Under the pieces are notes generated by a model. That model had not been told where the DNA came from. It did no database searches and saw only the letters and a program-made list of their open reading frames with translations. From the sequence record PQ571293: 44,223 nucleotides of DNA; one strand, 5' to 3'. Source of the DNA: Escherichia phage EM1. This document shows positions 44,136 to 44,223 of this stretch, in pieces (position 1 is the stretch's first letter; each line of letters opens with the position of its first letter). The translations under genes and the position numbers were made by a program.

Positions 44136-44205
44136 TAGTTACCAAGTAATAAGAATAAAGGCACAACCACGCCTGAAGAATCACAACGGCAACGTAACTA
44201 TTCTC

Positions 44206-44223
44206 TTGCACACCCCAACATAA
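44206..44223 (+). promoter_or_regulatory. -35 hexamer TTGCAC and spacer of a promoter whose -10 (TACTAT) lies at 5-10 across the window junction
   Basis: end plus start reads TTGCACACCCCAACATAAAGGATACTATTCACTT, near-identical to the promoters at 21897-21925 and 12361-12389. Confidence 0.5.

Follow-up and report, generated by a model that had tools for sequence, protein, structure and literature searches.

Two groups of published observations bear on the locus described here. In the Kagunavirus fBC-Eco01 (OM272052), PHIRE was used to describe seven 'phage promoters', PP1-PP7 (Arch Virol 2023, PMC9825357), and in the Salmonella phage Jersey (KF148055) promoters resembling TTGACA-N15-18-TATAAT are annotated as consensus matches only. 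Packaging has been addressed in several relatives. Jerseyvirus K47 was assigned P1-like headful packaging by PhageTerm and shows a circular-type restriction pattern (PMC10783031), a pac site was predicted for the Guernseyvirinae-like phage Shashou (PMC6776780), the large terminase subunits of K1G/K1H and related siphophages fall into a cluster with headful phages (PMC5582158), and PhageTerm gave no obvious termini for fBC-Eco01 (PMC9825357).

The window analyzed here is the whole deposited stretch of 44,223 nucleotides of Escherichia phage EM1 (PQ571293). Its two ends, when joined, rebuild a putative promoter that belongs to the PHIRE motif family: the fBC-Eco01 motif TGAATAGTAYCCTATTATRT is the reverse complement of ...AYATAATAGGRTACTATTCA, with seven copies in fBC-Eco01 and eight in the window. 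The positional homolog of the split promoter is PP6 (37807-37826), annotated as 'phage promoter6 predicted by PHIRE', which reads ACATAATAGGATACTATTCA with a T that is absent at the join, and which is internal to the fBC-Eco01 record but split over the two ends in the window. The motif family is therefore already on record in fBC-Eco01 and nothing in the junction finding is new in this respect. The explanation that best accounts for the data as a whole is a Kagunavirus circle that was cut within a promoter with the loss of one T, whose DNA is packaged by a headful mechanism and whose promoters are served by the host polymerase; a probability of roughly 0.88 is assigned to this reading. The finding thus describes the way in which a database record was linearized and is an artefact of that record, without new biology behind it. 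The biology itself is ordinary for the genus, in which headful genomes are permuted and the repeated promoter motif had already been annotated in one relative.

Gene map, closure and packaging of the genome

Hundreds of phage records show similarity to the first 25 kb of the window, and those of Kagunavirus (Guernseyvirinae) phages of Escherichia match best, with 88-91% identity over 65-83% of this query. Nucleotide identity and collinearity with BUCT825 and K1ind1 place the sequence in this genus, and the window comprises the entire genome of a virulent siphophage of E. coli. The GenBank phage collection does not contain this genome itself, its best entries being 88-91% identical, and exact-product look-ups of the first early ORF (45-227) and the tail-fiber ORF (29764-31092) in other assembly collections returned no match. 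The gene map is typical of the genus, with small rightward early ORFs, the terminase genes (6700-8509, plus strand; small subunit 6700-7248, phrog_3064; large subunit 7238-8509, Terminase_6N/6C) and then the portal, head and tail genes. The structural block holds two short minus-strand islands. The first (11636-12343) encodes a D12-class (Dam-like) adenine methyltransferase and the second (19467-21881) a superinfection-immunity protein, a metallophosphoesterase and two more ORFs. A leftward replication block (31121-43774) contains genes for an SNF2 helicase, a family A DNA polymerase, a DUF2800 nuclease and a primase-helicase. Four ORFs have a length of at least 700 aa and code for the family A DNA polymerase, the primase-helicase, the tape measure protein and a J-like tail protein. 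Rfam (gathering thresholds) and tRNA searches of the whole window were empty, so that no known RNA element is located at the junction.

Closure of the sequence was analyzed with a 1,200-nt query composed of the last 600 and the first 600 nt, which aligns as a single internal stretch in many Kagunavirus records. SZH-1 aligns to this query in one piece (1-1157), and BUCT825, K1ind1 and others gave similar results. In whole-genome BLAST the window proved to be circularly permuted relative to BUCT825 and K1ind1, with its last block (40729-44223) stopping at position 10588 of BUCT825 and position 1 of the window resuming from position 10590. Ten further loci, which were retrieved through an identical 56-aa HTH protein alone, each contain an alignment piece that bridges the join. 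Position 1 of the window is internal to the record in 60 of the 60 best GenBank matches, and GenBank relatives start at many different points, several of them at the terminase genes by convention. Since the joined ends run uninterrupted inside relatives that were opened elsewhere, these alignments show that the sequence closes on itself into a circle, save for one absent T, and the cut is peculiar to this record, since none of the 60 best matches begins at that point. The circular continuity that had been proposed from the letters of this stretch is thus established by the relatives. The accompanying proposal of a complete genome linearized inside a promoter is supported by the same relatives, which run through the site uninterrupted. 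The deposited sequence would then be a circular assembly that was opened arbitrarily within the spacer of the first rightward early promoter. A break of the assembly at a repeat was considered as another origin of the cut and ruled out, as the longest exact stretch shared by the junction and the other motif copies is 13 nt, which is too short for modern assembly graphs.

A further question is whether positions 1 and 44223 could represent real ends of the virion DNA, either as a cos site, as blunt fixed ends or as a pac start called by PhageTerm, with the missing base lost in end repair or trimming. Some pipelines do re-orient genomes to a predicted terminus, and the IMG/VR contig of one relative (L037, IMGVR_UViG_3300045988_013455) starts 3 nt 5' of the homologous -35 (position 1-35). 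This contig has no near-identical counterpart in GenBank. Its start is probably a coincidence, because no GenBank relative opens at the homologous site. None of the 60 GenBank relatives (0/60) opens here and their assemblies run straight across the site. A comparison of identical prefixes and suffixes, to which cohesive ends are invisible, revealed no terminal direct repeat of at least 5 nt. In headful phages, pac is usually located within the gene for the small terminase subunit or close to it, and this gene lies 6.7 kb away from the join. As the relatives are reported either to use headful/pac packaging or to lack detectable termini, fixed ends at the junction promoter are unlikely, and real termini at positions 1 and 44223 are accordingly given very little weight. 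A pac site would more plausibly be found at the terminase genes (6700-8509). The suggestion made in the sequence-only reading, that the physical ends or the pac site are elsewhere, is indirectly supported by what is reported for the relatives.

Like P22, P1, SPP1, Jerseyvirus K47 and Shashou, the window phage has a genome that assembles as a circle without defined ends. The records of headful relatives are opened at arbitrary or conventional points, and the window phage encodes a large subunit of the Terminase_6N/6C type. The Pfam assignment was made for the window protein itself, and in published trees it is the large subunits of K1G/K1H and Jerseyvirus that group with headful phages. Headful packaging from concatemers, which would yield circularly permuted and terminally redundant virion DNA as in the relatives, is most likely the mode employed by this phage.

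The split putative promoter and the base absent at the join

The last 18 nt of the window (44206-44223) are TTGCACACCCCAACATAA and the first 16 nt (1-16) are AGGATACTATTCACTT. Joining of the ends yields TTGCAC (44206-44211), a 16-nt spacer (44212-44223 and 1-4), TACTAT (5-10) and TCA. The end of the window thereby reads TCTC TTGCAC ACCCCAACATAA and the start reads AGGA TACTAT TCACTTATCGAAACGAGACAGAGGAGTAAGGGTTATG. The 5' part of the split early promoter (44206-44223, plus strand) comprises the -35 hexamer and the first 12 spacer nucleotides, the final two A's of which open the left half-site of a palindrome. The 3' part (1-16, plus strand) supplies the last four spacer nucleotides AGGA, the -10 hexamer and the sequence TCACTT, and one T is absent just 5' of base 1. 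The sequence-only reading had noted this promoter motif across the end/start junction, had pointed to related copies at 21897-21925, 12361-12389 and 1294-1322, and had remarked on the 16-nt spacer at the junction versus 17 nt elsewhere. A scan of the circularized sequence bore out each of these points and detected four copies, junction included, with a 17-nt spacer in all three copies outside the junction. The second rightward copy (1294-1322, plus strand; TTGCAC-N17-TACTAT, core AATAGGCTACTATT, leader ATCGAAACGAGA) lies 5' of an ORF at 1352-1561. The copy at 12361-12389 (minus strand; TTGCAG-N17-TACTAT) heads the one-gene methyltransferase island (11636-12343) and the copy at 21897-21925 (minus strand; TTGCAC-N17-TACTAT) heads the island 19467-21881. 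The junction and the latter copy match at 32 of 35 aligned positions and differ by one spacer transition, one A/G exchange and one gap.

Chance would have to produce far more than is expected of it to generate this pattern. By our own arithmetic, TTGCAS-N16/17-TACTATTCA should occur approximately 3e-4 times by chance on the two strands together, versus four copies observed, and a 32-nt consensus with up to three mismatches gave no match in 100 dinucleotide-preserving shuffles. The junction observation is real and not a product of chance. The possibility that the motif is a chance resemblance, or that the window covers just part of a larger element, for instance a prophage, is contradicted by these shuffles and by the full collinearity of the window, as a closed circle, with relatives of 41-46 kb; it is the least probable of all explanations considered and can be set aside.

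Directly downstream of the split promoter, a leader and the first rightward early ORF (17-227, plus strand) include the conserved sequence ATCGAAACGAGACA, a Shine-Dalgarno-like GAGGAG at 31-36 and an ORF at 45-227 that encodes a 60-aa protein of phrog_12538 with unassigned function. The leader ATCGAAACGAGA...GAGGAG is common to the split copy and the copy at 1294. A related form, (ATCG)AAACGAGA followed by a GGAG ribosome-binding sequence, was observed at 17-36, at 1325-1345 and on the minus strand at 40749-40720. It is thereby located 3' of three otherwise unlike promoters (the junction, the copy at 1294 and the leftward promoter at 40778) and also 3' of the early promoter of Jersey.

The alignments with relatives were used to examine the spacer of the split promoter. 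Pairwise alignments contain a single 1-nt gap exactly between positions 44223 and 1, where relatives read CATAA-T-AGGA, and the placement of this gap is unambiguous because an A flanks the T on both sides. Homologs were collected independently of the motif, namely six through BLAST with the junction region as query, nine from the set of ten HTH-protein loci, and fBC-Eco01. All of these 16 unique sequences (16/16) read CATAATAGGA with a 17-nt spacer, and their consensus CCCCAACATAATAGG[A/T]TACTATTCAC retains CATAA-T-AGG; the tenth HTH-protein locus, L076, has the T-containing reading as well. A scan of IMG/VR that was anchored on the flanks AACGTAAC...CGAAACGAGACA alone yielded 20 sites with a flank-to-flank length of 44 (18 sites) or 54 (2 sites), and the length of 43 in the joined window was never met. 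All 20 sites hence exceed the window by 1 nt, or by 11 nt where an unrelated 10-nt insertion is present 5' of the -35. Searches for the core itself in IMG/VR gave 66 matches to the T-containing form versus 0 to the T-less form. With the T put back, the core reads AATAG-GATA-CTATT and ends at base 11.

These comparisons have to be weighed against a genuine 1-nt deletion, by which the first early promoter of this isolate would carry a 16-nt spacer (CATAAAGGATAC) and the record would happen to be opened at the same bond. Sigma-70 promoters function with 16-nt spacers, so that the shortened form would still be in the working range, and the window is approximately 10% divergent from its nearest relatives, with about 120 indels per 35 kb aligned. 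Nevertheless, this indel density (approximately 0.0033 per nt) makes a genuine indel at that one bond only about 0.3% likely a priori, and still less likely where the base does not vary. The T is invariant in the 16 and the 20 homologs, and IMG/VR gave no match to the T-less form, versus 66 to the other. The deletion would also wreck the left half (AATAG) of a palindrome that has six exact copies elsewhere and is kept at seven other promoters, and the loss of this half-site is a further ground for calling the deletion an artefact. A genuine deletion is considered improbable, even if it is marginally the strongest of the competing explanations.

The guess of the sequence-only reading that one base is missing at the junction is confirmed by these comparisons, which show that exactly one T is absent at the bond 44223/1 and which point to an artefact of the record. 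The T of CATAA-T-AGGA would have been lost at the cut and the restored junction would read CATAATAGGATAC. The most likely cause is an off-by-one error during trimming of overlapping contig ends or during rotation or circularization of the assembly. With one T lost at the cut, the true genome length is probably 44,224 bp, versus 44,223 deposited. For users of the record this has the consequence, of small practical weight, that it probably lacks one base and is best handled as circular/permuted, and that linear scans miss the first early promoter and one of the eight palindromic sites. The record provides a clean case of an off-by-one circularization artefact that was found purely through relatives.

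Polymerase recognition and a candidate operator

The four copies that include the split promoter (class 1, TTGCAC/G-N17-TACTAT) fit the sigma-70 consensus at 7 of 12 positions (TTGCAC 3/6, TACTAT 4/6) and retain the key TTG and TAnnnT positions. A second group of sites (class 2, TTGACA-N17-TATAGT) fits at 11 of 12 positions. In both classes the hexamers are spaced as sigma-70 promoters require (17 +/- 1 nt). A generic sigma-70 scan of 43500-44223 detected two weak sites only, no more than in shuffles; class 1 is not flagged by such a scan because TTGCAC matches the consensus at 3 of 6 positions. All sites, each class 1 copy included, precede a gene block of the same orientation, at a distance of 25-45 nt from its first start codon. 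The two minus-strand islands would otherwise be untranscribable and need a promoter of their own, which counts in favor of a promoter role. The label of a putative promoter for the junction motif is reasonable. The one Kagunavirus RNA-seq paper that was found reports no promoters.

The published view of the motif differs with regard to the polymerase. The fBC-Eco01 paper and the GenBank record interpret it as a promoter for a phage-encoded RNA polymerase, on the basis of seven copies of tgAATAGTa-ccTATTat-T that PHIRE returned as 'phage RNAP promoters' (PMC9825357). The paper credits the motif to a phage RNA polymerase that these phages do not encode, and the flanking -35/-10 hexamers and the palindromic symmetry go unmentioned. 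No RNA polymerase gene was detected among the window ORFs, judged by the domains of the large ORFs, nor among the 77 annotated genes of BUCT825, and the motif always occurs within a TTGnnn-N17-TAnnnT frame. Recognition by a phage-encoded enzyme is thus very improbable, more so than real ends or a genuine deletion at the join, and the label 'phage RNA polymerase promoter' was rejected for the lack of a polymerase gene. As a phage without its own RNA polymerase gene must have promoters that serve the host enzyme, the four class 1 promoters are predicted to be read by host RNA polymerase and to head the rightward early genes and the two minus-strand islands.

The copies have in common a palindromic core of 14 bp, AATAG-N4-CTATT, which has a perfect match at six sites (1310, 12360, 21896, 33590, 38130 and 40755), and at seven with the junction T restored (44222-11). 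With a further copy that contains one mismatch (40799), there are eight promoter sites in all. By our own arithmetic, approximately 0.04 exact copies are expected, and at up to one mismatch the palindrome has 11 copies versus 1.23 in shuffles. The register relative to the promoter elements is not constant, as the palindrome starts 10 nt past the -35 in class 1 and 4 nt past the -35 in class 2. The class 2 copies are all located on the minus strand. The first (33585-33613, TTGACG-N17-TATAGT) carries the palindrome AATAGCAAACTATT 4 nt past its -35, the second (38125-38153, TTGACA-N17-TATAGT) has the core AATAGTTAGCTATT, and the homologs of both are annotated as promoters in Jersey. The third (40750-40778, TTGACA-N17-TATAGT; core AATAGTTCGCTATT) is predicted to drive the leftward genes from 40718. 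The eighth palindrome copy (40794-40822; AATATGGTACTATT at 40799-12, one mismatch) lies directly 5' of a gene for a Cro-like protein, and this stretch reads as a TACTAT -10 with a poor -35 on the plus strand and as TTGATA-N17-TAATTA on the minus strand.

Syntenic palindrome copies are present in BUCT825, K1ind1 and Jersey, with diverged hexamers and central bases. In Jersey, the AATAG-N4-CTATT core is found in or beside annotated promoters and two sites coincide with them; the promoters at 29238-29266 and 32925-32953 correspond to class 2 sites and the one at 39893-39920 to the rightward early promoter. Hexamers and register differ between Jersey and the window, and the Jersey homolog of the 21925 copy has its core 7 nt, not 10 nt, past the -35. 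Symmetric half-sites that are kept while their register relative to the polymerase contacts shifts give the palindrome the appearance of an operator.

Two further features fit this picture. The 14-bp site has the two-fold symmetry, the repetition and the overlap with promoter elements that are expected of Cro/CI-type operators (about 14-17 bp), and the phage encodes an HTH protein (HTH_3) with two sites in the divergent control region of its own gene. This Cro/C1-type protein (40843-41058, plus strand; 71 aa, Pfam HTH_3) is a candidate for the palindrome binder. Its gene is the only rightward gene within the leftward replication block and is preceded by a 124-nt divergent control region (within 40719-41058) that contains two palindrome copies. 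The best matches among solved structures are phage 434 Cro and the N-terminal domain of the 434 repressor, with E values of about 1e-5. The protein is conserved in Jersey (Jersey_50, 48% identity) in the same arrangement with the sites. An alternative candidate regulator is a 56-aa HTH_17 DNA-binding protein (43604-43774, minus strand), the product of the first leftward gene beside the control region, which is 88% identical to its Jersey homolog. The 56-aa protein is also unusually widespread, and 1,949 indexed blocks of the assembly collection carry its exact sequence.

The operators of phage 434 are 14 bp long, have a 5+4+5 layout of the type ACAAG/T-N4-CTTGT and overlap promoters. The window phage resembles this system in its 14-bp two-fold symmetric 5+4+5 site, which is placed over the -10 or the spacer, and in its single-domain HTH_3 protein. 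It differs in the half-site (AATAG versus ACAAG), in the distribution of sites (eight dispersed sites in a virulent phage versus two triple operators at the immunity region) and in having neither a CI partner nor a lysogeny module. It is tentatively suggested, at somewhat less than even odds, that the 14-bp palindrome, kept across Kagunavirus and Jerseyvirus, is an operator at eight host-polymerase promoters and not an element recognized by an RNA polymerase, and that a small phage protein, most likely the 71-aa HTH_3 protein or alternatively the 56-aa HTH_17 protein, binds it and shuts off or times early and middle transcription in phages that are strictly virulent. If this were true, the published 'phage RNAP promoter' annotation would be a misreading. 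Of the findings, a putative operator for a Cro-like regulator in this virulent subfamily, which is used in phage therapy and synthetic biology, is the only one of some research value.

Additional sites and the region upstream of the join

Several further observations were made on promoters and gene blocks of the window. The methyltransferase gene together with its class 1 promoter (11576-12403) forms an insertion of approximately 830 nt that is missing in BUCT825 and K1ind1. In IMG/VR relatives, promoters of the 12389 and the 21925 type precede several differing first genes, and in view of these varied first genes the promoter-headed islands look like exchangeable cargo slots. Two plus-strand sites, 4270-4298 (TTGACT-N17-TATATT) and 12456-12484 (TTGACT-N17-TAAGCT), carry TAGTTGACT at the -35 without the palindrome. 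Both are kept in BUCT825, K1ind1 and Jersey, precede the lysis/late and head blocks, and may constitute a separate promoter class.

The region upstream of the join (43808-44205) covers approximately 400 nt between the divergent early units and is without a convincing gene. Rfam gave no match over 43808-44205. A perfect inverted repeat (10-nt arms, 14-nt loop; 43925-43958) and a plus-strand TTGACA-N17-TAAGGT site (43852-43880) are located in this region, which could represent a small RNA or a replication/control region. A G+C-rich hairpin (GGGCAGGC-TTAAG-GCCTGCCC; 44113-44133, plus strand) is situated approximately 70 nt 5' of the split promoter, and its homolog is annotated as a terminator in fBC-Eco01. 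Just 5' of the -35, at homologs of approximately position 44199, a 10-nt insertion (CATTTTCAATGAATC replacing TATTC) is found in L001, L002, L060, L065, L078 and L081, which leaves the promoter unaltered.
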